DNA of 64,000 bases from Chloroflexota bacterium (GCA_965218195.1 OZ244593.1:3061413-3125412), one strand, 5' to 3'; shown: positions 12,251 to 63,455, counted from the first letter of the stretch. Translations and numbers: made by a program. The notes: generated by a model not told the origin, from the letters alone.

Positions 12251-12304
12251 ATCCGACCTGGATGCACAATTTATTTCAACCGCTGAGCTTATTTCAACCG
12301 CTGA
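12251..12304. repeat. Direct repeat TTATTTCAACCGCTGAGC x2 upstream of the 12325 gene.
   Basis: Read directly. It could be an operator, or it could be incidental. Confidence 0.3.
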
Positions 12305-12324
12305 GCGCAAGCGTCAGCTTCTGA

Positions 12325-15944: not shown

Positions 15945-16007
15945 TGACCTTGCCCCCGAAAACGCCCTGGATTTTGAGTAGAGTCCGTTCAATGGGAGGA
16001 GACGGAC

Positions 16008-16274: not shown

Positions 16275-16282
16275 CGCCCAGA

Positions 16283-17119: not shown

Positions 17120-17147
17120 GTGAGGGTAAGTTGGGGGCAGGGTCACC

Positions 17148-17836: not shown

Positions 17837-20674
17837 ATGACCCCATACGAGTTCATCACCAAGTGGCGCGCGTCGGAGCTGAAGGAGCGCTCGGCGGCGC
17901 AGGAACACTTCATCGACCTGTGCCGGCTGCTGGATGAGCCAACCCCCGCCGAAGCCGACCCGACCGGCGAGTATTACTGCTTCGAGCGCGGCGCGCGCAA
18001 GGACACCGGCGGCGACGGCTGGGCGGACGTCTGGAAACGCCACCACTTCGCCTGGGAGTACAAGGGCAAACACGCCAACCTGGACGCCGCCTTCACCCAG
18101 CTCAGGCAGTACGCCCTGGCGCTGGAGAACCCCCCGCTGCTGATCGTCTCCGACATGCTGCGGTTCCGCATCTACACCAACTGGACCAACAGCGTCAGCC
18201 GGGTCCACGAGTTCGGGTTGGACGATCTCGCCGGCGCGGCTGTGCGTAACAAGCTCAAGTGGGCGCTCTCGGACCCCGAGCGCCTGCGGCCCGGCGAAAC
18301 CCGGCAGACGCTCACCGAGCGCGCCGCGGCGGCCTTCGCCTCGCTTGCACACGGATTGCGGGAGCGCGGCCACGACCCGCAGGTGGTCGCGCATTTCGTC
18401 AACCGGCTCGTGTTCTGCATGTTCGCCGAGGACGTCGGCCTGCTGCCGAACGGCATGTTTACGCGGATGCTGGAGCACGCACGGCAGCGACCTGGTGAAT
18501 TCGCCGAGCTTGCCCGCGACCTGTTCGGCGCGATGGCCACCGGCGGCCGGATCGGCTTCGAGGAGGTCGCCTGGTTCGACGGCGGGCTGTTCGACGACGA
18601 TTCCACGCTGTCCCTGGAGAAGGCCGAGATCGAGACGGTGCTTGCGACGGCGGACCTGGACTGGTCGGAGATCGACCCGTCGATCCTGGGCACGCTGTTC
18701 GAGCGCGGGCTGGACCCCCGCAAGCGCGCGCAGCTTGGCGCGCACTACACCGACCGCGACAAGATCATGCTTATCGTCGAGCCGGTTATGGTGCGCCCCT
18801 GGCTTGCCGAGTGGCAAGCGGCCAAGGCGGAGATCGCGGCCTGTCTGGAACGGGCCGCAGCGGCCAGGTCGAGAGCGGCTCAGAACCGTCATTACGGGCA
18901 AGCGGAACGACTGCTGCGCGATTTTCTTGAACGGCTGCGGGGCTTCAAGGTGCTCGATCCCGCCTGCGGTTCGGGCAACTTCCTCTATCTGGCGCTGCAC
19001 GCGCTCAAGGACCTGGAGCATCGGGTGCAGCTTGAAGCGGACGCGATGGGCCTGCCGCTTACGTTCCCCGAAATCGGCCCCGCCAGCGTCAAGGGAATCG
19101 AGATCAACCCCTACGCCGCCGAGCTTGCCCGCGTCTCGGTCTGGATCGGCGAAATCCAGTGGATGCGGCGCAACGGCTTCTCGGAGTCGCGCAAGCCCAT
19201 CCTAAAGCCGCTCGACACCATCGAATGCCGCGACGCCATCCTCTCCCCGGACGGCGTGGAACCCGACTGGCCGGAGGCCGACGTGGTGATCGGCAATCCG
19301 CCGTTTGTTGGAGGCAAGCTCCTGCGCGGCGTGCTGGGCGGCGCATACGTGGAGGCGTTACAGCGGCTCTATGGCGACCGTATTCACGGCGAAGCCGACC
19401 TTGTATGCCACTGGTTCGACAAGGCCGAGCGCCTGGTCGCCGCCGGCAGGATTGCGCGCGCCGGCTTGGTCGCGACCAACTCGATCCGCGGCGGACGCAA
19501 CCGTTCGGTGCTGGACCGGATAGTCGAGCGCGGGGCGATCCATGACGCCTGGTCGGATGAACCCTGGGTTATCGACGGCGCGGCTGTGCGGGTATCGCTG
19601 ATCTGCTTCACTCGCAAGGACGCCGGGCTATCCGGGCGCCTGGACGGGAAGGACGCGCCACGCATCAACGCCGATCTGACCACCGGAACGGTTGATCTCA
19701 CGTACGCGGGCCGCCTCACGGAGAACGCCGGAGCCGCCTTCATGGGCGACACCAAGGGCGGCGCGTTTGACGTTACCGGCGATCTGGCCCGGGAATGGCT
19801 GGGGCTTCCCGCCAACCCTAACGGGCGGCCCAACTCGGACGTTCTCAAGCCGTGGGTCAACGGCATGAACCTGACCCGCCGTCCGGCGGGCAAGTGGATC
19901 ATCGACTTCGGATGGACGATGTCGGAGAACGACACCGCGCTCTACGAAGCGCCGTTCGCCTACATCGCGGAACACGTCCGGCCAGTGCGGCAGCGCAACC
20001 GTGAGAGCAGAGTCAGGGAGTTCTGGTGGCGACATGTGCGGCCCCGGCCCGACATGTGGCAGGCGTTGGACGGCCTGACCCGGTATATCGCCACGCCTTG
20101 TGTAGCAAAGCACCGGGTTTTTGCCTGGTACGACGTGCGTATCTGTCCCGACCACCAGCTAATCGTGATCGCCCGCGACGACGATACGACCTTTGGCATC
20201 TTGCACAGCCGGTTTCATGAGGCATGGTCGCTCAGGCTTGGCACGAGCCTGGAGGACCGACCGCGCTACACGCCGACCACAACCTTCCAGACTTTCCCGT
20301 TTCCGGAGGGGCTGACGCCCGACGTTCCCGCCCACGATTACGCGAACGATCCGCGCGCCGTGGCGATTGCCGACGCCGCCCGGCGGCTGGTGGAGCTAAG
20401 GGACCGCTGGCTCAACCCGCCCGAATGGGTGGAATGGGTTGACGAGCCCGTCCCCGGCTACCCCAGGCGCCCCGTCCCGCGCGACGAGGCCGCCGCCACG
20501 CAACTCAAGAAACGCACCCTGACCAACCTCTACAACCAGCGCCCCCAATGGCTCACCAACGCCCACGCCGACCTAGACTCAGCCGTAGCCGCCGCCTACG
20601 GCTGGCCGGCGGATATCTCGGAGGAGGATGCTTTGGGGGAGTTGTTGGAGATGAACTTGGCGAAATGCGACTGA
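17837..20674 (+). CDS. MmeI-like type IIL/IIG restriction-modification enzyme: an N-terminal PD-(D/E)xK nuclease, a gamma-class N6-adenine methyltransferase and a C-terminal target-recognition region.
   Basis: It is 945 aa. Block-wise similarity to MmeI: D-x-EYK (GWADVWKRHHFAWEYKGK), LVFCMFAED, LDWSEIDPSILGTLFE...LGAHYT, DPACGSGNFL (motif I), GIEINPYAAELARVSVWI, NPPFVGGK (motif IV) and VATNSI. Confidence 0.8.
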   Translation: MTPYEFITKWRASELKERSAAQEHFIDLCRLLDEPTPAEADPTGEYYCFERGARKDTGGDGWADVWKRHHFAWEYKGKHANLDAAFTQLRQYALALENPPLLIVSDMLRFRIYTNWTNSVSRVHEFGLDDLAGAAVRNKLKWALSDPERLRPGETRQTLTERAAAAFASLAHGLRERGHDPQVVAHFVNRLVFCMFAEDVGLLPNGMFTRMLEHARQRPGEFAELARDLFGAMATGGRIGFEEVAWFDGGLFDDDSTLSLEKAEIETVLATADLDWSEIDPSILGTLFERGLDPRKRAQLGAHYTDRDKIMLIVEPVMVRPWLAEWQAAKAEIAACLERAAAARSRAAQNRHYGQAERLLRDFLERLRGFKVLDPACGSGNFLYLALHALKDLEHRVQLEADAMGLPLTFPEIGPASVKGIEINPYAAELARVSVWIGEIQWMRRNGFSESRKPILKPLDTIECRDAILSPDGVEPDWPEADVVIGNPPFVGGKLLRGVLGGAYVEALQRLYGDRIHGEADLVCHWFDKAERLVAAGRIARAGLVATNSIRGGRNRSVLDRIVERGAIHDAWSDEPWVIDGAAVRVSLICFTRKDAGLSGRLDGKDAPRINADLTTGTVDLTYAGRLTENAGAAFMGDTKGGAFDVTGDLAREWLGLPANPNGRPNSDVLKPWVNGMNLTRRPAGKWIIDFGWTMSENDTALYEAPFAYIAEHVRPVRQRNRESRVREFWWRHVRPRPDMWQALDGLTRYIATPCVAKHRVFAWYDVRICPDHQLIVIARDDDTTFGILHSRFHEAWSLRLGTSLEDRPRYTPTTTFQTFPFPEGLTPDVPAHDYANDPRAVAIADAARRLVELRDRWLNPPEWVEWVDEPVPGYPRRPVPRDEAAATQLKKRTLTNLYNQRPQWLTNAHADLDSAVAAAYGWPADISEEDALGELLEMNLAKCD

Positions 20675-41608: not shown

Positions 41609-42790
41609 CGGCGGATGCCGCAGGCGGGGATGCTGGTGCAGATCGACGGCAGCCACCACCGGTGGCTGGAGGAACGTGGCCCGAGCTTCGCGCTGCTATT
41701 GGCCGTGGACGATGCGACCAGCATGGCGCCTTACGCGCTGTTCCAGCCGGAGGAGGACGCGCGAGGATACCTGATGCTGATGGAGGGACTGATCCAGCGC
41801 CACGGTATACCGCTGGCCGTCTACAGCGACCGTCACGCCGTTTTCAAGCATCCCGGCGAGCCTCGGCAGAAGCTGCCGGAACCGACGCAGTTTGCCCGTG
41901 CGATGCAGCAGTTGGGCATACGACAGATATTCGCGCGATCGCCACAAGCCAAGGGGCGTGTCGAGCGGACCGCGGGGACGTTCCAGGATCGACTCGTAAC
42001 TGAACTGCGCCTAGCTAGGGTCGAGACGATCGACGACGCCAACGCGGTTCGACAGGCAGTTCGGAGTCCCGGCGGCGCAGTCACAGGTCGCCTACCGCCC
42101 ACCGGAAACGGCGGCTGCCGTGGAACAGGCCCTGTGCTTCAGGTACCGCCGCAAGGTCGCCAAGGACAACACCGTCAAGTACAGATGGCGTACTCTGCAG
42201 CTACTACCCGACCAGGAGCGGCCCAGCTACGCCGGAGTCCGGGTGGAGGTGCTTGAGCGACCGGACGGTCGACTGCTGGTGAAGTACAAGGGACGCATGA
42301 TCCCGACCCAGGAGGCGCCCCCACGTCCCAGCCTCATGCGTGTGCTCAGTCAGACTCCCAGCCGCAACGGTAGCGCCATGGCTCCGGCTACCATCACCAC
42401 CCGCTCGCAGCTCTCGAATCGCGCGGCATCAACGACGCCAAATCGAACCGTCCCAGCAGAGCGCGCAAGCATGCAGCTCCGATGCCTAGGAAGCCAACCC
42501 CGCGCCAAGTGGCACTGTGGGAGGCGCTACAGGAGGCCAAGGTCCGTGGCCTGTCCATCCGTGGGATCGCGAGGGAGTTGGGTATCCATAGGAACACCGC
42601 CCGCAAGTACGCGGTAGCCGAGAGGCCGCCCGTGATGGCATTGCTCAACATCCCAGTGGCGCTACCCGATACTATGAACAACAATGCCGACTGACATTTT
42701 CGCTGACCACTTAGAAGGACATTTTCGCTGGACATCGACACAGGTCACGGCCAGCGCTCCGTTGCTGGACATGACTCTTCTATGGGGCAG
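41609..42790 (+). mobile_element. Second, 5'-truncated and frameshifted copy of the rve-type IS. It begins immediately at the amidohydrolase stop.
   Basis: The protein pieces lie in three frames (41615-42256, 42120-42617 and 42482-42694) and align with the 1339-2148 fragment. The same sub-terminal repeats GACATTTTCGCTG x2 occur at 42695-42760. Confidence 0.6.
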
Positions 42791-43107
42791 CCGGATCATG
42801 GCGGATGCGCTGACTGACGTAGAGGTTACGATTTAGGAGTTGGCACCTGCGCCATAGTGCCGATCACATCGTTACGGAGATCGCGAGCTACGACAAGGAC
42901 TTCGGCTTGGCAGCAGGACTCCAAAGGGCGGAGCCGTGATAGGGCAACCAGGGATCAGGAGTGAGAGATCGGCAAGCGAAAATGGTATAAGGGCAGGCCG
43001 GACGGCAGTAGCATCCTCGTTCACTTGCGTTGCCCTTTTTCTCCTAAGGAAGATGTTCGAAAAAGCTGTTAATTAGAATGAATCGTGAATTGAAACGGAA
43101 ACCCTAG

Positions 43108-43567
43108 ATGACAACAAACGATCGCATCATTCTCGATCAGGTTCTCGGCCAACGTCGGAGCGAAGTTGACCCAGATGCGGACGACAGTTCTTTTTTCGAG
43201 TTCTTCACCGCAGAGCAGGTTCTGAAGGATTTCGATCTCTCGTATGACGAGATAGAGTCTGGCTTGGTCGGCGACGGGGGCGATGGCGGGATAGACGCGA
43301 TATATCTGCTAGTGAATGGTGGCCTAGTTCAAGAGGACCCGGATTATGGCCGCCTGAGAAAGGACATTGCCATCGATCTGATCATCCTGCAGTCGAAGAT
43401 GCGCGCCGGGTTCCAAGAAACTCCAATCGAACGCTTTCTTACAGTCAGTAGCAACCTTTTTGACCTTTCAACAGAAGCTTCAACTCTTTCCGGCGTTTAC
43501 AATGAACGCCTTATAGAGTCAATGCAGCGTTTTCACGGCCTCTATCAAAAACTCGCCGCTTCGTTTC
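43108..43567 (+). pseudogene. N-terminal about 150 aa of an AIPR-family (abortive infection phage resistance) protein, truncated by IS3 copy 2.
   Basis: DRIILDQVL...SSFFEFFTAEQVLKDFDLSYDEIESGLVGDGGDGGIDAIYLLVNGGLVQEDPD...IDLIILQSK matches the AIPR N-terminal pattern. The ORF runs straight into the IS end at 43568. Only about 400 bp remain beyond the IS. Confidence 0.55.
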
Positions 43568-44768
43568 TGACCCTGCCCCCAACTTACCCTCACTCATAAG
43601 TAGAATCTTTTCAGGTTATGGCCCCAATTGGGGCGGGCTGCAAACTGGTTGGGTGTGAGCCCATCCAGGCTCGTGTGCGGGCGTGTTGTGTTGTAGTCGT
43701 ACCTCCATTCCGCGATGATCCGCCGCGCTTCGGCCAGGCCGGCGAAGAGATGTTGGTTGAGGCACTCGTCGCGCAGGCGGCCGTTGAAGCTCTCGACAAA
43801 GCCGTTTTGCATGGGCTTGCCCGGTGCGATGTAGTGCCAGCCAACGCCGCGTTCCTGCTGCCAGCGCAGGATAGCGTTTGAGGTGAGCTCGGTGCCGTTG
43901 TCGCTGACCAGCATGCGGGGGCGGCCCCGCAGCTCGACGATGCGGTCCAGCTCCCGAGCCACGCGGACGCCAGACAGCGATGTGTCGACGACGAGGGCGA
44001 GGCACTCGCGGCTGAAGTCGTCCACCACCGCCAGGATGCGGAACCGCCTGCCGTCGGCCAATGCATCCGCGACGAAATCGAGCGACCAGCGCTGGTTGCG
44101 GTTCCAGGGGAGCAGCAGCGGGGCACGCGTGCCGAGCGCCCGCTTGCGCCCGCCTCGCTTGCGCACCGTGAGCCGTTCCTCGCGATAGATGCGATAGAGC
44201 TTTTTATGATTGAGCCGGATGCCTTCCCTGGCCAGCAGGATGTGCAGACGGCGGTAGCCGAACCGTCGGCGCTGCTCGGCCAATTCCCGCAACCGCTTGC
44301 GGATGCCGGCGTCGTCCGGCCGCCTCGATTCATAGCGCTAAGTCTTCGGATCCATCCCGACAAGAGCGCAGGCACGGCGCTGCGAGTGACTAGTCTCCGT
44401 CATCGCCCAGGCCGCGGCCTTCCTCCGCAATCTGGGCGTTAGAAGTTTTTTGCAAGTAGCTCGCGCAGCGTCGCCACATCCAGCATCGATTCCGCCAGCA
44501 GCTTCTTCAGGCGCCGGTTCTCATCCTCCAGCCCCTTCAGCTTCCTGGCGTCTGATACCTCCATGCCGCCGTACTTGGACCGCCACTTGTAAAACGTCGC
44601 GCCGCTGACCCCGTACTTGCGGCAGAGCTCTGCGGCTGGCAACCCCGCCTGCTGCTCTTTGAGGATGCCGATGATCTGTTCCTCGCGTTACCTGCTCCGT
44701 CTCATGTCCGTCTCCTCCCATTGAACGGACTCTACTCAAAATCGAGGGCATTTTCGGGGGCAAGGTCA
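43568..44768 (-). mobile_element. IS3-family element copy 2 (1201 bp, about 98-99% identical to copy 1), inactivated by two nonsense mutations.
   Basis: The ends are the same as copy 1. orfA has TAT to TAA (..SR*R.. at 44685 region; copy 1 has SRYR). orfB has TAC to TAG (KT*R at 44330 region; copy 1 has KTYR). No target-site duplication is visible. Confidence 0.8.
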
Positions 44769-45163
44769 CTGGCTAGAGAGAAATTCCTTTCGTTGATCAC
44801 TGATCTGAACATAGGCGGCAAGCCGTTGGGAACAATTCAAGTTGAGAGAGACCTTTTGATTGAACAGCTTCATTCAACGTATCGCGGTGCTCCCAATACT
44901 ACGTCTCGGGCATATGAAAAAGCACAGAAGGCTCTTAAGCGGGATGAAGAAATGACATTTTCTGATGACGAGATCGACGCATTTCTACCAAACGAACTTA
45001 GAAGAAGCTAACGACGCCCTGCTGCGCCATCTCTACTCTCAACTTGAGTCGGGCGCGAGCAACGTTTCAAGGACTTGCACCGGAACGACGGTTGACCGCT
45101 TTGCAAATCCCTTACGCCCTCGACAACTAGAACCACTAAGTAGCTGAATTGTTGCGGTCGGCC

Positions 45164-49441: not shown

Positions 49442-50671
49442 TCAGGCGGCGGCCCGCACCGCCTTCGCCTCGTCCCGCAGTCGCTTCACCCTTTCGGCTA
49501 AGTCGCGGACTCGATCTAGAACCTCGTCGAGCCTCCCCGTCAGATCGAGCGCCGCTACGTCCAGCCGCTTGTTGGAGTGCCTGACACGGTAGGTGCCCTC
49601 GTTCGCCTCGCCCTGAGCGTAGATCAGCAGTCCGCCCGGCAAATCTAGCGCGGTGACGTATGCGAGAAGCTGGTACAAGTCCGTGTTGGGCACTCTCTCG
49701 CTGGTGATGTTCTTGTATTTAGCGTCCCCCACGAATAGGCAGGATCGTCCGTCCCACCAGGTCAGGTCGGGCCTGAGTCGTATGCCGTCCTCCTTATCGA
49801 GACTGTCTATGGCCTTCTCGAGGAACACGCGGTCGGAGACTTGCAACGCCTCCCGCAGCGCCTGTGTCACGAACTCCTGGAAGACGTCGTTCATGTCCAT
49901 CAGGAACCCGGATGCACGCACCTCACCACGACCGGACTCATACGCGCTGTGCCGCAACACGAGCCGCGACAGCGCCACCACCTCGCGATAGTGCCCGTTC
50001 AGTCGGTCGAATCGGACCTCCGGCAACGCGTTAGGCGCAAACTCGACCAGCGAGACGTTGGCGAGCATCCCCGCAATCCGCCCCAGCTCTTTCCGCGCCG
50101 CAGGCGATCGCAGCCGCATCCGGCCCAGCCGGTAGACCGCCGCCTTCACCAGCCGGTTCGCCAGGACGTCGTCCGTGAACTCGTCGTACCTCACTTCGAC
50201 CGGCACCGCGATGCCGAATCTCCGCCGTATCTGCTCGTCGAACCTGATCCGACCGCGTACGGTTTGCAGAGCCTCCTCCTCCACAACGTATCCGTGCAAA
50301 AGCCCGCGCGAGAACGCCCTTCTGGCGGCGGAGACAAGCGCAAGCGCCAGCACATCCGGCATTGCATATTCACGCGGGTAGTCGAACTGTTGGCGCTGAG
50401 GCTTGAACTTACTCATCGCGTAGCACGCAAGCGAGAGCAGCTGTGGAATCTCGATCTTTGGCTCGATCAGCACCGACAGGTCGCCAATCTCGATCGCGCC
50501 CACGGTCGAACCGGGAGTCACTTGGTAGGCTCCCTCCTTGCCCACGACGGGCTGGATTGTGAGAGATGGCAACGCCTGCAGCAGCACATCGTGCTCGGCG
50601 ACCGCGAGCTCATGCTCGCTGGTGGCGTACTCCTTCAGGTCGATTTCACGCATCGGTCGGGCCGTCGTCAT
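49442..50671 (-). CDS. McrC-like PD-(D/E)xK endonuclease subunit (pair 1).
   Basis: It is 409 aa with the motif LFVGDAKYK (D-x-K-Y-K, typical of McrC). It sits immediately downstream of, and overlapping, the McrB-like gene. Confidence 0.75.
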   Translation of the reverse strand: MTTARPMREIDLKEYATSEHELAVAEHDVLLQALPSLTIQPVVGKEGAYQVTPGSTVGAIEIGDLSVLIEPKIEIPQLLSLACYAMSKFKPQRQQFDYPREYAMPDVLALALVSAARRAFSRGLLHGYVVEEEALQTVRGRIRFDEQIRRRFGIAVPVEVRYDEFTDDVLANRLVKAAVYRLGRMRLRSPAARKELGRIAGMLANVSLVEFAPNALPEVRFDRLNGHYREVVALSRLVLRHSAYESGRGEVRASGFLMDMNDVFQEFVTQALREALQVSDRVFLEKAIDSLDKEDGIRLRPDLTWWDGRSCLFVGDAKYKNITSERVPNTDLYQLLAYVTALDLPGGLLIYAQGEANEGTYRVRHSNKRLDVAALDLTGRLDEVLDRVRDLAERVKRLRDEAKAVRAAA

Positions 50672-53006
50672 CGGCTCTGTCGGTATCGCCTGCTTCCCAT
50701 AGCTTTTCGAGGTCGAACTCGCCGAGGCGGTCGCCTTGCCCGAAGAGCAGCTCCTCGATGTACGGAAGCACGCTGTGCTTCCAGATGCGCCTGACGGCGT
50801 CCTCGTCCAGGTCCTCCTTCATGAAGTAGCTCGGCCCTATCGCGGCGTGCCGGTCGTCCCTCAACTTCTCGTTGGCTCGGTCTACGACATCGGCCACCCA
50901 CGCCATGCCCGGCGCCTTCTCCCTCAGCCAGCGCCGTAGCACCCCTTTGATGGGTTCCTCGTCCGGGTGGAACTCGACGAAGTTGAATCGGCGACGCAGC
51001 GCCAGATCGACCAGCGCGATCGAGCGGTCGGCCGTGTTCATCGTGCCGATGATGTAAAGGTTGTCCGGCAGCTCGAAAGTCTCCCCACTGTTCCTCTGGT
51101 ATTGGAGGCGTATCGCTTCGTCACGGTACTCCAGCAGGAAATACAGTTCCCCGAACACCTTGGCGACGTTGCCGCGATTGATCTCGTCGATCAGGAGGAA
51201 ATGCCTCTCGTCCGGCTCTCCCCGTGCACGCCTGCCGGCCTCAAGCAGCGGCCCGTCCGTCAGCTCGAACCCGGGCTGACCGCCTCTCAGTGTGGGGCGG
51301 AAGCCCTGCACGAAGTCTTCGTAAGCATAGGATGGATGTAACTGCACGAGATCGACCCGATCGTCCGCTCCCGCGAGATGCCTCGCTAACTTCCGCGCAA
51401 CATAGGTCTTGCCCGTTCCAGGCGGTCCCTGGAAGATGACCTGCTTCTTGTCCTCCAGCAGTTTCTCGATGTTCCCAAGGAAGTCCGCGGTGAGATGGAG
51501 TTCAGCCGCTAGCGCATCGAGGTCATCGGGCGGTGGGGGAGGCGGTGAAATGATGGTCCCTGGCATTCCCCAGACCACGGACTGCGCGTCAAGTCGATGG
51601 CGTAGCTCAAGCCCCCGCTCAGCCGCCTCGTCGATGAAGCGGTCGAGGAATATGAGCGCATGCTCGTAGACGGCAGCCTCGTCCGCCTCGCCCTCGGGTC
51701 GACGGTATTCCGTGCTGTCGTATGCCTTGTTGAACACGCCAACCCGGTACGGCGGAAACTGCTCGACGTCCAGCCCCATCAGCAGCACCGAAATCAAATT
51801 CGTGCGGTTCCCGGTCGCGCCTCTCAACGCAGAGCGTGGGACCCCGCTGCTGAAGCCGCGAATCCGTTCCGTGATCGTCGAGTCGTCTCGCGACCACAAC
51901 GCCTCGAGCTCGCTCAAGGCTTGTTCCGAATAGTCAGCGCACCACCGCGTGAAATCACTCTGAAGCTGCCAGGCAATGGGGTGGCCCGGTCTGGTCTTCA
52001 GCGCGCGCTTCAACACCTCCGGCCAGTCTTCGGCGCGGGAGACAACGGCATTACGCGCAGAGGCGAGGTCCCGACCCATTTCAAGCTTGTAGCCGATCTC
52101 CTCAATCTCCATTCGACCGGAGTCGACGTAGCTCCTTGCACGCTCGACAAACTGATCCCAAGGGTCGGATGTCGAAGACCGCCAACGCTTCGATACCTCG
52201 CCGTCGTCGTAGAAGTCGAAATCCCTGCCTAGCTCGTCCTCAAGCCCTCGACGTATCTGTACCAGTTTGCGGTCAGGGTCCTCGGTCGGCTCTCTAACGA
52301 GATACGCGAATCTCTCGGTGATCTTGTTCTTGTGGTCGCCGCTCAGGATTGCCTCGAACGTGTCGCCGTGGACGAGATGCAGTAGTGTCGCTCGCGCAAC
52401 GGCGCGGCTGTTCCGGGGACCGGTCCGCAGCGGGCCGCGCCAATCCACATCCATGACGAACTTCTTGAACTCCCAAGCAGCTTCCGGGTCCCCGGAGTCG
52501 AGCAAGCGCTCGACCGGCCCTCGCTCCTTCCACTGCTCCACGAACTCGATCAAGTAGCCAGGCAGAAGTCCGGGACTCTGACTGAAATGTCGATTTGCAC
52601 TGACGAGGCCGGGTCTAAGGCCGTCGACGCAGTCATCCGGTATTGCCATAGGTAGCGGCGACCATCCCAGCACCCGTTCGATTTCTTGCCTCTTCCATGT
52701 GCCTTTGGCGGCTTGCCGAGCAACGAGATAGGAGGCGTAAAGAACTTCTCCCATCAACTGGTAGACCTCGGCTGGACTGCCTGTCAATAGCCGCTCCAAG
52801 CTCGCAAAGAACGCGTGCTTCGATTGTCCGTTCCACTCTCCCGGTCTATCCAAAAACCGCCCGCGCAACTCACTGAGCCACTGCCTCGACCAGATCGGTT
52901 CCCCCACCGTGAAGAGCGAGTCGTCGGATCTCAACGCGCGGTCGACCCATGTGCTCGCGGCAGCGTAGACCGTCTCTCGCCCGCCTCCAGTCTTTCTGCC
53001 ACTCAC
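50646..53006 (-). CDS. McrB-like AAA+ GTPase (786 aa) with an about 480-aa N-terminal domain of unknown type (pair 1).
   Basis: It has QVIFQGPPGTGKTYVA (P-loop), LLIDEINRGNVAKVFGEL, and NLYIIGTMNTADRSIALVDLALRRRF (the McrB signature MNTADRS plus the sensor). Confidence 0.8.
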   Translation of the reverse strand: MSGRKTGGGRETVYAAASTWVDRALRSDDSLFTVGEPIWSRQWLSELRGRFLDRPGEWNGQSKHAFFASLERLLTGSPAEVYQLMGEVLYASYLVARQAAKGTWKRQEIERVLGWSPLPMAIPDDCVDGLRPGLVSANRHFSQSPGLLPGYLIEFVEQWKERGPVERLLDSGDPEAAWEFKKFVMDVDWRGPLRTGPRNSRAVARATLLHLVHGDTFEAILSGDHKNKITERFAYLVREPTEDPDRKLVQIRRGLEDELGRDFDFYDDGEVSKRWRSSTSDPWDQFVERARSYVDSGRMEIEEIGYKLEMGRDLASARNAVVSRAEDWPEVLKRALKTRPGHPIAWQLQSDFTRWCADYSEQALSELEALWSRDDSTITERIRGFSSGVPRSALRGATGNRTNLISVLLMGLDVEQFPPYRVGVFNKAYDSTEYRRPEGEADEAAVYEHALIFLDRFIDEAAERGLELRHRLDAQSVVWGMPGTIISPPPPPPDDLDALAAELHLTADFLGNIEKLLEDKKQVIFQGPPGTGKTYVARKLARHLAGADDRVDLVQLHPSYAYEDFVQGFRPTLRGGQPGFELTDGPLLEAGRRARGEPDERHFLLIDEINRGNVAKVFGELYFLLEYRDEAIRLQYQRNSGETFELPDNLYIIGTMNTADRSIALVDLALRRRFNFVEFHPDEEPIKGVLRRWLREKAPGMAWVADVVDRANEKLRDDRHAAIGPSYFMKEDLDEDAVRRIWKHSVLPYIEELLFGQGDRLGEFDLEKLWEAGDTDRADDDGPTDA

Positions 53007-53183
53007 CGTTGTCCTCCCGCCGCTGTCTCTAGCCGTCTCGCCTCAGCATCGCTGATTGAACCCACATCGTACTGTCGTTGTGTACCACGAAGGCTCATCA
53101 GCCCCTCGTATCCACACCGTGGAGATGGACCTGCGGCGCCCGGGGGGAAACGCATGCGTCCACGGCCTGAAACCGAGCAGAGA

Positions 53184-53219
53184 GATTCTCAGTTCGTGCG
53201 GTCCAGCGAACTGAGAATC
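53184..53219. promoter_or_regulatory. 13-bp perfect inverted repeat (GATTCTCAGTTCG-N10-CGAACTGAGAATC) between the two McrBC-like pairs.
   Basis: Read directly. It lies downstream of mcrC-like 2 and upstream of mcrB-like 1. No convincing U-tract follows it, so it is either an operator or a weak terminator. Confidence 0.4.
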
Positions 53220-53412
53220 AATGCCGGCCGAGCCGAGGCAACAACAGATTTAGCCACCCTATTCACACATAGGGTTTGCTATTGCCGCCGACCAGAGCAT
53301 TGGACAGGTGGACCTTCTTCCTCCTCAGGAGCCTGCTAGTGCCACCGCCCAACACCTGCTCACCATCTTCTCTGGTTCAAATCGCGGCCTGCGAGCCGTC
53401 GAGGGCAGCGGG

Positions 53413-54624
53413 TCAGGCTACGGTCCGAAGCACCCTTGCCGCATCCCGCAGTGCCTTTACCCTGATCGCCACTTCCCGGACTCTTGCGAGAACCTCGTCG
53501 AGCGTCTCCGAGAGGTCGAGACCTGCGACTTCCAATCGCTTGCCGGAGTGTCTCACGCAGTAGGTTCCCGCTTCGGCCTCGCCCTGCGCATATATCAACA
53601 ACCCGCCCGGCAGGTCGAGCGCAGTGACGTAGGCCAGCAGCTGGTATAAGTCCGAGTTCGGCACTCTTTCGCCGGTCAGGTTCTTATATTTCGCATCGCC
53701 CACGAATAGGCAGGATCGCCCTTCCCACCATGTCAGATCGGGCTTGAGTGGTACGGCGCCTTCTTCATCAAGGCTGTTTATCATCTTCTCGAGGAACACT
53801 CGGTCCGAGAGCCGCAAGACCTCCCTCAGCGCCTGTGCGACGAACTCTTGGAATACCACGTTCATGTCCATCAGGAATCCGGGGGCGCGCACTTCCCCGC
53901 GATCGGCCTCATACGCGCTGTGTCGCAGGACGAGCCGCGAGAGCGCTACCACCTCACGGTAGTGCTCGTTGAGCCGGTCGAATCGGAGCTCCGGCACCGC
54001 GTTGGGCGGATACTCGACCACCGAGACGCTGTCGAGCATGCCCGCTATACGCCTCAACTCCCGACGCGCCTCCCTCCATCGCAACCTCATCCGGACCAGC
54101 CGTTCCACCGCCGCCTTCACAAGCCGGTTCGCCAGTATGTCCTCGGTAAACTCGTCGTACCTGACCTCGACCGGCACGCTGACGCCGAATCTACGGCGTA
54201 TCTGCTCGTCGAACCGGATTCGCCCTCGCACCGTGTGGAGTGCCTCTTCCTCCACTACGTAGCCGTGGAGCAGGCCGCGCGAAAACGCTCGCCGGGCGGC
54301 AGACGCGAGGGCTAGTGCCAGCACATCCGGCAGCGCATACTCGCGCGGGTAGTCGAACTCCTCACGGCGCATTTGAAGTTTGCCCATCACGTAGCACACG
54401 AGCGAGACCAACTGGGCAATCCCGATCTTCGGCTCGATCAGCACGGATAGGTCGCCGATCTCGATCGCACCAACCGTGGAGCCGGGTGTGATTCTGTAGG
54501 TTCCTTCTCTGCCCATCACAGGCTCGATCGTCAGACTCAGCGGTGCCTCCTGTAGAGCATCACGCTGAGCGATCGAGAGCGCATGTTCGCTGGATCTGTA
54601 CTCTGTTAGGTTGAGTTCATCCAT
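53413..54624 (-). CDS. McrC-like endonuclease subunit (pair 2), a diverged paralog of 49442-50671.
   Basis: It is 403 aa with the same LFVGDAKYK motif. It is collinear with pair 1 and I estimate about 75% identity by eye. Confidence 0.75.
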   Translation of the reverse strand: MDELNLTEYRSSEHALSIAQRDALQEAPLSLTIEPVMGREGTYRITPGSTVGAIEIGDLSVLIEPKIGIAQLVSLVCYVMGKLQMRREEFDYPREYALPDVLALALASAARRAFSRGLLHGYVVEEEALHTVRGRIRFDEQIRRRFGVSVPVEVRYDEFTEDILANRLVKAAVERLVRMRLRWREARRELRRIAGMLDSVSVVEYPPNAVPELRFDRLNEHYREVVALSRLVLRHSAYEADRGEVRAPGFLMDMNVVFQEFVAQALREVLRLSDRVFLEKMINSLDEEGAVPLKPDLTWWEGRSCLFVGDAKYKNLTGERVPNSDLYQLLAYVTALDLPGGLLIYAQGEAEAGTYCVRHSGKRLEVAGLDLSETLDEVLARVREVAIRVKALRDAARVLRTVA

Positions 54625-56989
54625 CGCTCAGCCCGTGGACGTCGCCAGGTCCGTCGGGGTCTTTTGCTCTCCTCAGGCTCTCTAGGTCGAACTCGCCCAG
54701 CCGGCCGCCTTCCCCGAAGAGACGCTCCTCGATGTACGGCAGCACGCTGTGCTTCCAAATGCGCTGGACAGCGTCCTCGTCGAGGTGGTCCTTCATGAAG
54801 TAGCTCGGCCCAATGGCGGCATGCCGATCGTCCGCGAGCTTCTCATTGGCCCGGTCGACCACATCGGGCACCCATGCCATGTCGGGTGCCTTTTCCCTCA
54901 GCCGCCGGCGCAACACGCCCTTGATGGGCTCTTCGTCCGGGTGGAACTCGATGAAGTAGAACCGGCGGCGCAGCGCCAGGTCCACGAGCGCGATCGAGCG
55001 GTCCGCCGTGTTCATTGTCCCGATGATGTACAGATTGCCGGGTAAGGCGAAGGTCTCTCCGCTGTGTCTCTGATACTGGAGGCGCATCTTCTCTTCGCGG
55101 TACTCCAGCAGAAAGTACAACTCACCGAAGACCTTAGCTACGTTGCCACGGTTGATTTCGTCGATGACCAGGTAGTGCTTCCCTTTATCCCCTCGCGCGC
55201 GCTCGGCGGCCTCAAGCAGCGGACCGTCTATCAACTCGAATTTCAACTCACCGTCCGTCAGCGTGGGACGAATGCCACGCACGAAGTCTTCGTAAGCGTA
55301 GGAGGGATGTAGCTGCACGAGTGTTACCCGGTCCTCTGAGCCCGCCAGATACCTCGCAAGCTCCCGGGCAACGTACGTCTTCCCTGTTCCGGGCGGCCCC
55401 TGGAAGATGACCTGCTTCTTTTCATCAAGCAGTGATTCAATGTTCCCGAGGAAGTCGGCCGTCAGGTAGAGTTCGACAGCGAGCCTTTCGATGCCGTCGG
55501 GCGGAATTGGCGGCGGTACTGGACCGTGCCCTTGCATTCCCCAAATCACAGACTGCGCATCTAGCCGATGGCGCAACTCAAGCTCCCGCTTGGTGGCCTC
55601 GTCGATGAAGCGGTCGAGGAACGCGAGCGCGTGTTCATAAACCGAGGCCTCGTCCTTCTCATCTCGCGGCCGACCGTATCCGGTGCTGTCATACGCCTCA
55701 TTGAACACACCTACCCTGAACGGCGGATACTGTTCGACATCCAGCCCCATCAGGAGCACCGATACCACGTTCGCGCGATTCCCGGTCGCGCCTCTCACAG
55801 CCGAGCGAGGGAGCCCGTTGCTGAAACCGCGAATGCGTTCCACCAGCGTCGAATCGTCTGGCGACCACAACTTGCGCAACGCGCTGCGCGCCTCCTCCGA
55901 GTAGTCGGCGCTCCATCGATTGAAGTCGCTTAGAAGCTGCCATGCTATGGGATGGCCCGTCCTGGTCCTGAGAGCGTGCTTCAGCACGTCTTGCCACCCG
56001 TCGGTTTGGTCGAGAACGGCGCCACGTGCCAGGGCGAGGTCCTGCCCCATTTCGAGCTTGTATTTGATCTCCTCAGGATCCAATCGACCGGAGTCGACGT
56101 AGCTCTTTGCGCTTCCAACAAACACATCCCAACGGTCGGCGGTCGAAGACCGCCAACGCTTCGATACCTCGTCATCGTCGTAGAAGTCGAAGTCCCGACC
56201 CGTTTCAGCCTCAAGTCCCCGGCGAATCTGCGCCAATTGTCGGTCAATGTCATCCGTCCGCTCCGTTACGAGATATGCGAACCTCTCAGCGATCTCGTTC
56301 TTGTGATCGACGCTCAGGATTACCTCGAAACTATCGGGGTGAACCAAATGCAGTAGGGTCGCCTGCTGCATCGCCCGGCGATTCGAGGGACTACTGCGCA
56401 GCGGACCACGCCAATTGACTCTCGCGACGAATTCCTTGAACTCCCAGGCGGCTTCAGCATCCGTGGAGTCGAGCAAGCGGAGGTCTGCCCCTCGCTCCTT
56501 CCATTGCTCCACAAACTCGATGAAGTAGCCGAACTGGAGTCCGAAGTTGGCTGTGAAGGACGGTCCCGGGTGTACGAGGCCAGGCGCTAACCCGTCGACG
56601 CAGTCATCCGGCACGCTCGTAGGCGTCGGCGACCATCCGAGCACTTGCTCAATGCGTTCCCTCTTCTGTCTCTCGCTCATTCCACCTCGCCCTCGGTGAA
56701 AGACGACGAGATACGCGACGTAAATCACTTCTCCCATCAACTGGTATACCGGGGCTGGACTACCCTCCAAGAGCCTCTCTAACTTCCCGAAGAAGTCGCT
56801 TCTCGGTAGCCGGTTCCACTCGTCGGGTCGGTCCAAGAAACGACTGCGTAGCTCACCAAGCCACCGCGTCGACCAGACCAGCTCCCCGGGCGTGAAGAGC
56901 GAGTCGTCGGCTCTCAAAGCGCGGTCGACCCATCTGCGGGCAGCCGCGTAGACCCGCTCCTGCCCGTCTCCCGCCTTTGTGCTACTCAC
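54617..56989 (-). CDS. McrB-like AAA+ GTPase (790 aa), a diverged paralog of 50646-53006 (pair 2).
   Basis: It has the same P-loop, DEINRGN and MNTADRS motifs. Its N-terminal about 480 aa are about 65-70% identical to pair 1 by eye. Confidence 0.8.
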   Translation of the reverse strand: MSSTKAGDGQERVYAAARRWVDRALRADDSLFTPGELVWSTRWLGELRSRFLDRPDEWNRLPRSDFFGKLERLLEGSPAPVYQLMGEVIYVAYLVVFHRGRGGMSERQKRERIEQVLGWSPTPTSVPDDCVDGLAPGLVHPGPSFTANFGLQFGYFIEFVEQWKERGADLRLLDSTDAEAAWEFKEFVARVNWRGPLRSSPSNRRAMQQATLLHLVHPDSFEVILSVDHKNEIAERFAYLVTERTDDIDRQLAQIRRGLEAETGRDFDFYDDDEVSKRWRSSTADRWDVFVGSAKSYVDSGRLDPEEIKYKLEMGQDLALARGAVLDQTDGWQDVLKHALRTRTGHPIAWQLLSDFNRWSADYSEEARSALRKLWSPDDSTLVERIRGFSNGLPRSAVRGATGNRANVVSVLLMGLDVEQYPPFRVGVFNEAYDSTGYGRPRDEKDEASVYEHALAFLDRFIDEATKRELELRHRLDAQSVIWGMQGHGPVPPPIPPDGIERLAVELYLTADFLGNIESLLDEKKQVIFQGPPGTGKTYVARELARYLAGSEDRVTLVQLHPSYAYEDFVRGIRPTLTDGELKFELIDGPLLEAAERARGDKGKHYLVIDEINRGNVAKVFGELYFLLEYREEKMRLQYQRHSGETFALPGNLYIIGTMNTADRSIALVDLALRRRFYFIEFHPDEEPIKGVLRRRLREKAPDMAWVPDVVDRANEKLADDRHAAIGPSYFMKDHLDEDAVQRIWKHSVLPYIEERLFGEGGRLGEFDLESLRRAKDPDGPGDVHGLSDG

Positions 56990-57091
56990 CGTTGTCCTCC
57001 CCCAGCTGTCCCCGGGTGCCGCGCTTCATCAACGCTTATCGACCCCACATCGTACTGTTCTGGGAGCTCTAGTTCCGTCCAAACATAGTGC

Positions 57092-58096
57092 TTGATAATT
57101 CCGCAAACCAGAGCAAGGGTCGTGTGGATGTTTTCCTCTCCGGAGTCCGCCATGCCTACCGCTCAATCTACCCTGCCCACTGTCTTCTCTGGCTCTGCTT
57201 CCGGCTGGGATGCCTCGCTCTACGCCTTCCTGGCCGAGAAGCAACGCCGCTCGGGCTCGCTCCGTACTCCTGACTCTTACTACCGCACTCTCCGACACTT
57301 CTTCGGCTCTACCCAGAAGTCGCCGAATCAAGTGTCTGCTCAGGATGTCTTTTCGTTCGCCCATGGGGTCGGCCTCTCGGGGCGTGAACCGTCTCCCACC
57401 ACCGTCGGCGCTCGCATCTGCTGTCTCTCTTCGTTCTATAAGTTCCTCATCCGGCTGGATCTGCTTGCCTCCAATCCCTGCGATCCGGTGGAACGCCCCA
57501 AGCCTCGTCCCAGCGCACCAAGCGGCCTCTCCGCTGCACAGGTGCAGCAGCTCCTTCAGGTCATCCCCGATACCGTCAAGGGCAGGCGTGACCTCGCCAT
57601 CGTCCTCACCCTGGTCCTAACCGGCAGACGCAGGTCCGAAGTCGTCAACCTGACTGCCGGCGATATCGCCTTCGATGACTCGGCCGCCTTCTACCGCTAC
57701 GTCGGCAAGGGCGGTCTGCGCGGCCGCCGGGAACTCCCTCGTCCGGCCCTCGCCGCCATCGTTCGGTCACTCGCCGATGTCGGCAAGGACATCCACTCCA
57801 TGCAGCCCGCCGAGTCGCTTTGGCAAGCGGGCGCTGGTCCCACCGGCGTCTCCAGCGCCACCTTCTACAACCGCTTCCGCACCTACCTCCAGAAGGCCGG
57901 TCTGCCTCCTTCCGGCGTCCACGTCCTCCGCCACTCCGCCGCCAAGCTCCGCCGCGATGTCGGCGAGTCGGTTGAGTCGGTAAGCCAGTTCCTCGACCAC
58001 AGTTCGCTCGCGGTCACCACCACCTACCTCCGCAGACTGGAAGGGCAGCGCGATGCCGCCTGGCAGGGCGTCGCAACCGTTATCGGCGTGAGCTAG
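57092..58096 (+). CDS. Tyrosine-type site-specific recombinase/integrase (XerC/D-like).
   Basis: It has the C-terminal catalytic pattern ...LTGRRRSE...HVLRHSAAKLRRDVG...LDHSSLAVTTTYL (R...HxxR...Y). The start may be at 57131 or 57152. Confidence 0.8.
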   Translation: MIIPQTRARVVWMFSSPESAMPTAQSTLPTVFSGSASGWDASLYAFLAEKQRRSGSLRTPDSYYRTLRHFFGSTQKSPNQVSAQDVFSFAHGVGLSGREPSPTTVGARICCLSSFYKFLIRLDLLASNPCDPVERPKPRPSAPSGLSAAQVQQLLQVIPDTVKGRRDLAIVLTLVLTGRRRSEVVNLTAGDIAFDDSAAFYRYVGKGGLRGRRELPRPALAAIVRSLADVGKDIHSMQPAESLWQAGAGPTGVSSATFYNRFRTYLQKAGLPPSGVHVLRHSAAKLRRDVGESVESVSQFLDHSSLAVTTTYLRRLEGQRDAAWQGVATVIGVS

Positions 58097-58258
58097 CTCG
58101 CCCCGCCTACGGCGTTCTTCGCCTCGCAGGTCTAGAATCTGCTCCGGTCGGGCGGCAGCGCATTCCCCTTCCACCAATGCACGTATCACTGCCGTCCCGC
58201 CTTATGGGCGGATCGGTGTCTACGCTGTTGGCCTCTACCATCAGGATGCCGGTCCGCC

Positions 58259-59932
58259 TTGACCTCTTCGCGCCTCCCGAGCGTTCATACGTCCCGCTTC
58301 AACTCCCTCGCCCTGGAGGTCCTTGTGCCCGATCCCATCCTCCGCATCGCCACCTACGCCCGCGTCTCCTCCGACGAACAGCGTGACCGTCATACCGTCC
58401 GCAATCAACGCTCGGCTCTATCCCGCCGTCTGGGTTCCGAGCCGGGTGTTTTGGTCTTCAAGCATTACGAGGATGACGGCGTCTCTGGCACTGTCCCTCT
58501 CGAAGACCGTCCTTCGGGGCGCGCGCTTGCGCGTGATGCTCGCGCCGGTCGTTTCTCCCAGATCTGGGTCGTCCGCGCCGATCGCCTCGGTCGCGACGCC
58601 TTCGAGCTGCTCCGCATCTGGAGAGTGTTCGAGTCGATCGGAGTCTCCCTCCGCGCCACCGACGAGAACATCGACGATCCCTTCTACTTCGATATCCACG
58701 CCGTCATCGCCGCCAACGAGCGCCGCAAGTTCCTCGAACGTTCCGCAGAGGGCATGAACCGCGCCGCCAGCGAAGGCCGCTATACCGGCGGCATCGTCCC
58801 GCTCGGCTACTCGGTCTCCGGCGATCGTGGCTCCCGTCGCCTCGTCCCGGACGACTCCATCATGTGGTCCGGCCTCTCCGCCGCAGACGTTGTCAGACGC
58901 ATCTATCACCATCTGGCCTCGGACGGCTGGACCTGTCCGCGTATCGCTTCCGCCTTCAACTCGCTCGGCATCCCCACCTCCTATCGCCGCGACGGTCGCG
59001 GCGTTCGCGGCAAACGCACCCAGGGCCTCTGGCGCTCCGGCCATATCCGCAATCTCGTCGTCAATCCCGTCTACAAGGGCATCCTCCAGTACGGACGACG
59101 ATCTACCAAACCGAATGGTCGTTCTGTCATTTCTTCTTCCGTTCCCCCACTGGTTTCCGATGATGTCTGGAACGCCGCTCTCTCCACTCTCAAGCGCAAC
59201 CGCGCCTTCCCACGCAACTCGTGCCACTCCTACCTGCTCCGCTCCCTCATCCGCTGTGCCGTTTGCGGCCTGACCTTCTGCGGAACATGGGCCAGAAATA
59301 AGCCTCGCTACAGGTGCAACGGCTCCATGGCCCACCGCGGCCCTCTCCAAGGCAAGTGCATCGGCGCCTCCATTAAGGGCGAGAGGTTGGAGCAGGCGGT
59401 CTGGTCGGATGTCTCCCGCTTCCTTATCGACCCCTCCGACCTCGTGGATGAGCTCCTCGCCGAAGGCTCGGACATCGAGAATCACGCCGTCGCCGAGGCC
59501 GAGCGCGCCTCGCTGCTCGACGCTCGCAACGCGGCTCAGCTTCGCCGCAAGCGCGCCATCGACCTCTATACCCGCGGCAAGCTGTCCGACCTAGAGTTCG
59601 ACGCCGTGGCCGCAGACGTGGAACAGGAACTCAAGAGGCTGGACGAGCGGCTAGCCGATCTCGAACCCGATGACGACCCGCTTGACGACGCCGTCTCCGA
59701 GGATGTGCTGGCGGAGATCCGTGAACGCCTGGAGGCGGACCTCTCGGACGCCGAGCGCCGCGAGATCGTTCAGTTGCTGGTGCGCCGGATCACCGTCCAC
59801 ACCACCCTCCCCGACCGCGGCCCCAAGCACGTCCGCGTCGTCATCGACTACCGCTTCCCGCCTGTAGTCCAAACTCACACGGGCATCGCTGCGAGTCACA
59901 GCTACACCCTCCGCCGTGTTATCGCCGCCTGA
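58259..59932 (+). CDS. Large serine recombinase (resolvase/invertase N-domain, recombinase domain, zinc ribbon and coiled-coil).
   Basis: IATYARVSSDEQ (catalytic Ser region), VVRADRLGRD and a CAVCG...YRCNG zinc ribbon are present. It is about 540-557 aa. The start is possibly the GTG near 58325. Confidence 0.85.
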   Translation: MTSSRLPSVHTSRFNSLALEVLVPDPILRIATYARVSSDEQRDRHTVRNQRSALSRRLGSEPGVLVFKHYEDDGVSGTVPLEDRPSGRALARDARAGRFSQIWVVRADRLGRDAFELLRIWRVFESIGVSLRATDENIDDPFYFDIHAVIAANERRKFLERSAEGMNRAASEGRYTGGIVPLGYSVSGDRGSRRLVPDDSIMWSGLSAADVVRRIYHHLASDGWTCPRIASAFNSLGIPTSYRRDGRGVRGKRTQGLWRSGHIRNLVVNPVYKGILQYGRRSTKPNGRSVISSSVPPLVSDDVWNAALSTLKRNRAFPRNSCHSYLLRSLIRCAVCGLTFCGTWARNKPRYRCNGSMAHRGPLQGKCIGASIKGERLEQAVWSDVSRFLIDPSDLVDELLAEGSDIENHAVAEAERASLLDARNAAQLRRKRAIDLYTRGKLSDLEFDAVAADVEQELKRLDERLADLEPDDDPLDDAVSEDVLAEIRERLEADLSDAERREIVQLLVRRITVHTTLPDRGPKHVRVVIDYRFPPVVQTHTGIAASHSYTLRRVIAA

Positions 59933-60099
59933 GCCCAAACACCTCGCCCCTCGACCGTCTCCGGTTCCTACAGCGGCGACAGGTCTCTTTCAGTTCCAGT
60001 TTGCTCAGCTCGATCGCTGCTGAGAAGACACCCCGAAGGCCCGGGTGAGGCTCCGTTCAACCGCCCCCGCTCTTCTTCTGCAATCGCCCGTTCAGCGGC

Positions 60100-60400
60100 C
60101 TGGGCGAGTTATTGGGTTTCCGGATGCCGAGCGACATGCCGCCGCTCGCAGTTGTCGGAGGGAGCGTTCATTGTTGATGCTTACTTTCTATACAAAGAGC
60201 GCCTCGGCTTGGCGTCGAGTTCTGCCGCGCCGGCGACGGCCACATCGCCGCCCGGCTCGCCCCTGTCGCGCCACGGGGCGCCGTACAGAGCTTCGGCGAA
60301 CATGGGCTGCTTTGCGGCGAGTCTGGCCGCACACGCGCGTCACGGGGCGCCTGTTTGCGAGTCCAGCTGGTCATGAACTTGAAGCGCTGAGGTTGGACCT
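60100..60400. mobile_element. Short degenerate IS256-like scrap, homologous to 15600-15944.
   Basis: An about 180-bp alignment CGCCTC(C/G)GCTTGGCGTCGAG(C/T)TCTGCC...GGCGACG.CCACATCGC...CGCGCCAC...TTTGCGAGT is shared with 15722-15900 at about 80% by eye. The reverse translation gives AEALFV / MN.PS fragments resembling the IS256 transposase segment AEAFFT..MNCPS. Confidence 0.35.
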
Positions 60401-60734
60401 GATTGCGCCGTTCGTGCGCCTCCCTCGACGGCCGAACCGCGCTCGATTGGCCTCGCTCCCGCCTACCAACCACTACCAATTCATTTTTGCCAGCAAAGGT
60501 AGGGTTTGCTAGCCGTTGCTAGTCCCCGGACCCGCGCTTTTCGCTAGCTGGACGGCTTCTCGCTGCCTCGTCAATCGCCTGCGCGACCTCGGGGCTCGCT
60601 TCCACCGTCATCCCGACTATACCGCTACGCCGCCCGGATAAGCCGGCCACTCAAAGCACCGGATGTACCGACGACGCCTGCTGCCTTGACCAAGCCACCT
60701 TACTAGTCTAGGTTTCTCGTAAGGAGATGCGCCC

Positions 60735-62430: not shown

Positions 62431-62502
62431 CGCGAGCCTCCTTGCCTCTCGGCTATCCCGACTCCGGCTTAGGCGTCCCCAGCGATTTCCACCGCACTTC
62501 CG

Positions 62503-62994
62503 TTACGGAGCCAACTGTTGACGTATGGTCTTGATCAGCTCCAGGATGTCAGGACGAGCTTCCTTCACCTCGTCCCGCTGGGCGAGCTCCTCCAATGCTT
62601 CGACGACCCGCTGGTCGCCGAAGTCCACCAACTGCTCAATCGCCAGCAGGTGTGGAGGCGGTGAGTAGAAGGGATAGCCATCTGGGTGCTTCTCCGGTGA
62701 CCTTACGAGATTAAGCAAGTGCTGGCGGATCTCCTCCGTGTCCGGCGATGGCTGCCAGAACTCTCGCACATCGTTGCCGCCATGAACGTACACCGGCCCA
62801 ATGGGTATGGGGTCGCGGTCGGGCCGGCGGTACGGGTGGTTGGCGCAGTAGGTGTAGAAGGGGTTCGGGATGGCGAGCTGGCGGATCTCGCAGGAACTAG
62901 GGATATCACTCTTGAAGTTGGCGGATCCACGTTGGCCGCTGTTGGAGCGGTTGAACCAGCAGGTGCCGCAGCAGTCTGATCCTCCATTCGGCAT
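62503..62994 (-). CDS. Cys-rich hypothetical protein (163 aa).
   Basis: It is an ORF with the N-terminal pattern MPNGGSDCCGTCWF...C...C. It is adjacent to DUF4268 on the same strand. No family could be assigned. Confidence 0.4.
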   Translation of the reverse strand: MPNGGSDCCGTCWFNRSNSGQRGSANFKSDIPSSCEIRQLAIPNPFYTYCANHPYRRPDRDPIPIGPVYVHGGNDVREFWQPSPDTEEIRQHLLNLVRSPEKHPDGYPFYSPPPHLLAIEQLVDFGDQRVVEALEELAQRDEVKEARPDILELIKTIRQQLAP

Positions 62995-63455
62995 GTGTCC
63001 AACATCCTCCGCTCAACTGACCCGTCCCAAGGCTTGAACCACGAAGTATGTTAGCCCGACGAGCATCGGGATAGGCTGCCCAGGCAGGATGGCCGGCGCC
63101 GGCGGCCTGTAGCCGGCGAGCTATGCAGACATAGTGGGGCGTGTCCTGGCTGCTGACTGCACAGTCCATGCATACGTGAATGGACAACAGGGGCGCACAG
63201 CAAACTGAACTACAGGTAGCCGGCGCCGACGACCGTCCTGCCTTCTGAGCCTATCGCGATGCTCGGGGGACTCGCATGGTTGGAAATCCAAAGCTTGGGC
63301 GCAGGACAGTCAACGGGTGGCTTGGTCGTCGACGTCCGCCCCAGTCTATTGCGCCTCCTGGTTAAAGACAGCGTTTTCATACGTAAGGACTAGCCTACGT
63401 GGTGGTGGGTTTCCGTATTCGGGGACCGCATTGGCTAGACCCAGCACAGACCGAG

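Follow-up and report, generated by a model that had tools for sequence, protein, structure and literature searches.

The 64,000-nucleotide stretch analysed here (the window) very probably owes its present arrangement to a local IS-associated deletion of 2.6 kb, which removed most of an AIPR/AbiU gene together with a type I CBASS. A near-identical relative still has both the AbiU-like Abi gene and the CBASS that this genome would thereby have lost. The closest locus, L001 (OZ253578.1, a 3.8-Mb Chloroflexota MAG chromosome), has flanks ~99% identical to the window and carries, on one strand, an AIPR gene (558 aa), an SMODS/CD-NTase cyclase gene (293 aa), an SLATT_4 effector gene (212 aa) and then a copy of the same IS that is found in the window; this is the one close relative known to have the intact three-gene locus, and it too is rearranged, at an IS copy of its own that lacks a target-site duplication (TSD). 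Using blastn, L001 9486-10468 corresponds to window 42593-43575 (98.6%) and L001 13036-13396 to window 44769-45129 (99.2%), both in the same orientation. Unmatched between these flanks are 2,575 bp of L001 (10461-13035), whose place is taken in the window by an IS3-family element, copy B (Table 1). The missing segment comprises AIPR codons 154-558, the entire cyclase gene and SLATT codons 1-132; at its two ends in L001, AIPR continues CGACGCTGAAGG and the SLATT part ends ...GATATCTGG. Neither the segment nor its three proteins has another match within the 64-kb window by tblastn or blastn, and the same searches find no match there for a CD-NTase/SMODS cyclase gene. The sequences flanking copy B therefore come from one locus, in their original order and orientation and 2.6 kb apart, which is the signature of a local IS-associated deletion.

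Table 1. Coordinates of the features discussed (window positions unless another locus is named)
Feature	Coordinates	Strand	Remarks
Mutator/IS256-type transposase remnant	15115-15816	-	Left of copy A; 5'-truncated, frameshifted; Pfam Transposase_mut 3.7e-24, positions 206-355 of 379
IS3-family copy A	15945-17145	+	1201 bp; TSD absent
Copy A orfA	16008-16274	+	Open frame
A AAA AAC motif, copy A	16262-16268		IS positions 318-324
Copy A orfB	16283-17119	+	Open frame
TrlF-family AAA-like ATPase, last 100 codons	17148-17450	+	Directly at copy A right end; NCBIfam TrlF_fam_ATP 1.5e-36, positions 847-943 of 944
MmeI-like type IIG enzyme	17837-20674
ISNCY-family transposase remnant	41615-42330	+	Frameshifted, without first ~123 positions; transpos_ISNCY_2 1.8e-60 (124-268) and 2.5e-06 (302-365) of 368
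IS21-like HTH stump	42482-42694	+	NCBIfam transpos_IS21 positions 3-31
AIPR/AbiU-type abortive-infection gene stump	43108-43567	+	Start codon, codons 1-153, first base of codon 154
IS3-family copy B	43568-44768	-	1201 bp, TG...CA ends; TSD absent
Copy B orfB	43594-44430	-	Premature TAG at codon 31 (44338-44340), upstream of rve/DDE domain
A AAA AAC slippery heptamer, copy B	44445-44451	-	-1 frameshift site, OrfA to OrfB; IS positions 318-324
Copy B orfA	44439-44705	-	Premature TAA at codon 6 (44688-44690)
SLATT_4 two-transmembrane CBASS effector stump	44769-45011	+	Last 80 codons and stop; both membrane helices missing
Native 3' intergenic DNA of SLATT gene	45012-45129	+	Collinear with L001 up to 45129, where L001's own IS begins
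Methyltransferase-like gene, 941 aa	45164-47989
McrBC pair, first	49442-53006		McrB-like (AAA_5) and McrC
McrBC pair, second	53413-56989		McrB-like (AAA_5) and McrC
Interruption of AIPR homologue by a 481-aa transposase gene	L028 (Bacteroidota) 10519-11985		At ~residue 173
Interruption of AIPR homologue by IS1595-like debris	L033 (Dehalococcoidia) 8194-10340		Between residues 133 and 158

The right inverted repeat of copy B adjoins the AIPR stump. This fragment matches the PADLOC AbiU model (3e-41, positions 1-144 of 537) and is 99% identical to the start of the 558-aa L001 protein, with one residue differing in the first 153; at the DNA level there is 1 nt difference in 460, with no further lesions. 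In the L001 protein, residues 257-492 form the Pfam AIPR domain (PF10592, 2.8e-40), and the match to AbiU extends over the full length (6.5e-195). These results agree with the original prediction that the N-terminus is AIPR-like, and the intact gene was recovered from a relative as it had proposed. Its reading of the ORF as running in frame into the IS end at 43568 also holds, since ORF 43108-43599 consists of 153 non-IS codons followed by 10 IS-encoded codons, with the stop at 43597-43599. The term 'decapitated', by contrast, has the damage at the wrong end: the start and the first 153 codons survive, while the 3' 405 codons, including the entire AIPR domain, are lost. Pfam and NCBIfam gave no match for the 153-aa stump, nor did Pfam for the 163-aa product. 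Judged from its sequence, the window holds a remnant of an AIPR/AbiU family member rather than a member. A genome scan with the stump returned 43 loci. Of the 42 besides L001, nearly all can be aligned along the greater part or the whole of the ~550-aa protein, as far as their contigs permit, so that truncation is the derived state. The first protein hits were all at most 257 aa, and a genuine family of ~230 aa was considered; it was rejected, as the genome loci show ~550-aa genes and most of the short hits are frameshifted or cut by contig ends. Among the names under which the family is known (AIPR, PF10592; lactococcal AbiU, AbiUi; COG1479), the alignment is to the N-terminus of AbiU. In the literature, the family appears as nuclease-type Abi proteins with links to R-M systems, and AbiU delays phage transcription (PMC3632139, PMC13064643); only lactococcal AbiU has been tested for activity (PMC13064643).

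The left inverted repeat of copy B adjoins the end of an SLATT_4 effector gene. The stump matches Pfam SLATT_4 (PF18186; 6.1e-23, profile positions 98-165 of 165) and the PADLOC 2TM effector (3.7e-31, positions 108-185 of 189), and is identical (100% aa identity) to residues 133-212 of the intact L001 protein, with 1 nt difference in 243 and no further lesions. The hydrophobic stretch at residues ~68-113 of the intact protein, read from its sequence and taken to make up the two membrane helices, falls in the deleted part. In L001, the cyclase (11838-12719) matches SMODS (8.6e-53) and the PADLOC CBASS cyclase (8e-141), and the effector is a full-length SLATT_4 protein (1e-62) that matches the PADLOC 2TM effector (2.8e-74). 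Type I CBASS is laid out as a cyclase with one effector (PMC10419184), and L001 conforms to this, the SLATT_4 2TM effector gene lying immediately after that for the SMODS/CD-NTase cyclase. The window differs in that the cyclase is absent and the effector is reduced to the soluble C-terminal 80 residues. Both defence systems are probably dead: the AIPR domain is gone, with the cut falling inside the N-terminal fold, and so are the cyclase and the effector helices. Having diverged from L001 at only 1 nt in 460 (AIPR) and 1 nt in 243 (SLATT), the two stumps show the loss to be recent.

It had been noted that ~400 bp of non-IS sequence follow the element. The length is right, with ~395 bp between copy B and the next long ORF at 45164, but the DNA is not leftover AIPR sequence: 243 bp are the SLATT_4 tail, followed by intergenic DNA. 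A chimeric 96-codon ORF (44721-45011) has its TTG start within the left end of the IS and continues into the SLATT tail. Neither this ORF nor ORF 43108-43599 should be annotated as a gene; both are pseudogene fragments.

A repeat finder returned one inverted repeat pair in the window, 1201 nt long and 99% complementary, formed by copies A and B. Aligned with 60-nt flanks, the two copies are identical up to boundaries lying exactly at TGACCTTGCCCCC... and ...GGGGGCAGGGTCA (TGACC...GGTCA). These termini, TGACCTTGCCCCC and GGGGGCAGGGTCA, are identical in nine copies of the element and form imperfect terminal inverted repeats of the type 5'-TG...CA-3'. Measured on copy A, OrfA (88 aa) matches Pfam HTH_Tnp_1 (1.7e-23), and OrfB (278 aa) matches Pfam rve (2.3e-19) and rve_3 (1.2e-32) as well as NCBIfam transpos_IS3 (1.6e-69; cut-off 160 bits). 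Modelling the -1 shift gives an OrfAB of 370 aa, whose length and LLAK/KLLTPRL junction are the same as in the database proteins P0059 and P0060. The element thus combines an HTH-encoding orfA, an orfB with an rve-type DDE domain, a predicted frameshift site and TG...CA inverted repeats, as expected of the IS3 family. By its size (~1.2 kb), TGACC... ends and the 4-bp duplication flanking clean copies, we take it to belong to the IS407-like group as ISfinder groupings are generally understood; no ISfinder name for the element was found. From that group, copy B differs by nonsense mutations in both frames and a missing TSD, and copy A by a missing TSD and private changes in the left inverted repeat.

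The base-by-base alignment of the two copies, which had been suggested as a check, shows 8 differences (IS positions 19, 25, 81, 431, 580, 775, 898 and 1014), corresponding to 99.3% identity. The differences were polarised on nine aligned IS copies, as L001 alone misleads at position 580. Copy B alone has three of the changes, namely both nonsense mutations and, in the conserved LNEHLF motif of OrfB, a Glu to Gln substitution. The two Tyr-to-stop changes are as originally described. In orfA, codon 6 is TAT in 8/8 of the other copies compared and TAA here; in orfB, the change of codon 31 from TAC to TAG is private among the 9 copies. Tyr occupies both sites in each of the 14 homologues retrieved that extend over them. 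The stop codons of copy B are the derived state. As the OrfA stop precedes the HTH domain and the OrfB stop precedes the DDE domain, neither OrfA nor an OrfAB transposase can be made, in line with the earlier view that this copy is dead; with termini that match the consensus, it would be non-autonomous at best. Copy A had been called intact. Its frames are indeed open, but it too has three private changes, at positions 19 and 25 in the left inverted repeat (the latter in the CCCTC block common to both inverted repeats) and at 898, an Ile to Ser substitution in the conserved NAILRW motif of OrfB. It is at most a candidate functional copy. Two further differences, L/R at LALVVD and I/S at YRIYREE, were considered as private damage and rejected, being shared polymorphisms among the nine copies. 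The six private changes comprise 5 transversions and include no synonymous change, a spectrum that is not significant at n = 6.

Read in IS orientation, the 4 bp on either side are GGAC and CCCT at copy A, and CCAG and GAAA at copy B. Comparison of these flanks reveals no direct TSD at either copy, as previously stated, and no reciprocal match between the two. Both window copies are members of the family but not simple insertions. Six further copies of the element were fetched from public assemblies, and half of them have a perfect 4-bp TSD (CGAG in L044, CAAC in L047 and CGGC in L048), indicating that simple insertions of this IS make 4-bp duplications. The missing TSD at copy B thus fits an IS-associated deletion. 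The other 3/6 have none; copies of this IS without a TSD are common, and a missing TSD alone is weak evidence. The IS is abundant, with near-identical OrfB clusters of up to 370 member sequences. The L001 copy (13397-14582) lies 118 bp downstream of the SLATT gene in the orientation opposite to copy B and is degenerate, with a 15-bp in-frame deletion, a split orfB and no TSD (ACTA/AGTC). In long-read MAG records, the IS ranges from 1194 to 1202 bp, and an A6/A7 difference at the slippery site yields a fused 370-aa ORF; AIPR homologues are likewise split by frameshifts in many such records (loci L018, L030, L038 and L040; proteins P0004-P0014). These frameshifts and length variants may be assembly indel errors rather than biology. 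Two metagenome scans gave no matches for a 32-mer across the AIPR-IS junction or a 39-mer of the left inverted repeat, a result that carries no weight either way.

To account for the arrangement, an ancestor would have had three co-oriented genes, AIPR/AbiU-like, cyclase and SLATT_4 effector, as L001 retains. In the window's lineage, a 1201-bp IS now replaces 2,575 bp, joining AIPR codon 153 to SLATT codon 133. Two insertions in the same orientation, one in AIPR and one in SLATT, may have recombined with loss of the intervening DNA and one IS copy; or, after a single insertion, a deletion may have extended outward from one end of the IS. Either route fits the data, and how and in what order insertion and deletion took place is what we infer. 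A single-step derivation from the L001 IS was tried and rejected, as both the deletion and the inversion outcomes of intramolecular transposition fail to reproduce the window; copy B and the L001 IS are therefore treated as independent insertions. The original prediction of insertion plus deletion is supported by the comparison with L001, although it missed that the deletion also took the cyclase gene and the first 132 codons of the effector gene. In the published literature, recombination between IS copies or an adjacent deletion is given as the cause of an absent TSD, and the 'IS-Del' events described there resemble our case in that a single IS joins two non-contiguous sequences with unmatched flanks (PMC11708052), here TTTC on one side and CTGG on the other in window orientation. 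There is no substantive difference, except that ours is a natural case in an uncultured Chloroflexota genome and theirs arose in a laboratory population. All the components come from described families, and the process, an IS-associated deletion, is a textbook one and part of ordinary defence-island decay. As a further natural case of defence-island turnover driven by IS elements, it has little import beyond annotation.

The missing segment might have been moved instead of lost, if recombination with a third IS copy outside the window had carried it elsewhere in the genome. The abundance of the IS, the lack of a TSD at half of the outside copies and the heavily scrambled order of blocks between the window and L001 would all suit such a rearrangement. 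We nevertheless regard it as very unlikely: the flanks of copy B share one locus, order and orientation, a translocation or inversion needs two coordinated exchanges, and no trace of the segment is seen in the visible 64 kb.

The local deletion also has to be weighed against an artefact, in which the assembler merged two IS copies, or joined different strains across the repeat, and errors in the consensus account for the two stop codons. Metagenome-assembled genomes make up the related records, and the window's own source appears to be one contig of ~3.6 Mb. The many frameshifted AIPR and IS ORFs of the related records, like the variable IS length, are as expected of indel-prone long-read assemblies. 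The two stop codons, however, are substitutions and not homopolymer indels, and the junctions fall exactly at the IS termini common to nine copies. A 1.2-kb repeat should also be easily spanned by the long reads behind a megabase contig, and a collapse would still need two separate IS insertions in these genes. Taken together, these points make an artefact a most improbable source of the arrangement.

An inversion of the 26.4-kb segment by homologous recombination between copies A and B was also considered as an explanation of the missing TSDs, as the copies are inverted, 99.3% identical and both without a TSD. The earlier analysis had found this unsupported, and our results lead to the same view. 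The reciprocal flanks mismatch (GGAC versus GAAA, CCAG versus CCCT), and undoing the inversion restores no gene, as it would place the AIPR stump by the IS256 remnant and the TrlF tail by the SLATT tail. With both copy B flanks belonging to one collinear locus in L001, such an inversion is extremely unlikely. Finally, the idea that an IS insertion into AIPR cost only the remainder of that gene, leaving ~400 bp of residual or intergenic AIPR-locus DNA, draws on the in-frame ORF and the little non-IS DNA before the next gene, but has practically no chance of being correct, since the post-IS DNA encodes the last 80 residues of an SLATT_4 effector at 100% identity to an intact gene and a complete cyclase gene lies between AIPR and SLATT in L001. 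More generally, when a gene runs into an IS, the sequence beyond the element needs an identification of its own before being assigned to that gene.

Coming back to the local deletion, we looked at the position of the AIPR cut. AIPR homologues are interrupted by an IS in three independent cases, all between residues ~133 and ~173 of the ~558-residue protein: by the window copy at residue 153 and by the elements in L028 and L033 (Table 1). The L028 and L033 lineages are unrelated, their IS families differ from each other and from that of the window, and the same ~40 codons are affected. A scan statistic gives p ~0.02 for the clustering, a rough, post hoc value from n = 3. The site could be non-random, either as a transposon hot spot or because truncation after ~150 N-terminal residues is favoured (e.g. 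a costly Abi toxin silenced with the N-terminal module kept), but we give this very little credence. At the cut, the intact gene reads TTTC followed by CGACGCTG, which matches the IS end TGACCCTG at 6/8 positions (window 43560-43575 versus L001 10453-10468); the opposite junction matches the IS end at 2/8. Insertion targeted to inverted repeats has been described for some IS3-family elements, and the 6/8 likeness could reflect such a target choice or chance.

Copy A lies between two gene stumps without a TSD, so that it too sits at a rearrangement junction. The tail at its right end also matches the tail of the Ppl anti-phage protein (PADLOC). The TrlF-family gene is a third defence-type gene truncated at an IS boundary, here that of copy A.

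The same 64 kb holds debris from four other transposon families; that of ISNCY and IS21 immediately precedes the AIPR stump. Besides the genes in Table 1, the window further contains a DUF4238 gene, a DrmD-like fragment and a tyrosine recombinase. The two McrBC pairs stand in tandem, are spaced 3,971 bp apart and share 73-80% DNA identity; they are read as a type IV restriction system that was duplicated and has since diverged. Window 42458-42753 has a reversed, 83%-identical copy in L001 at 16576-16871. The blocks shared with L001 (window 8-1231, 42458-42753, 49744-60557 and 62479-63112) differ in order and partly in orientation, which indicates that the island has been extensively rearranged between near-identical genomes. 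Sequences like window 62479-63112 and 8-1231 are adjacent in L001.
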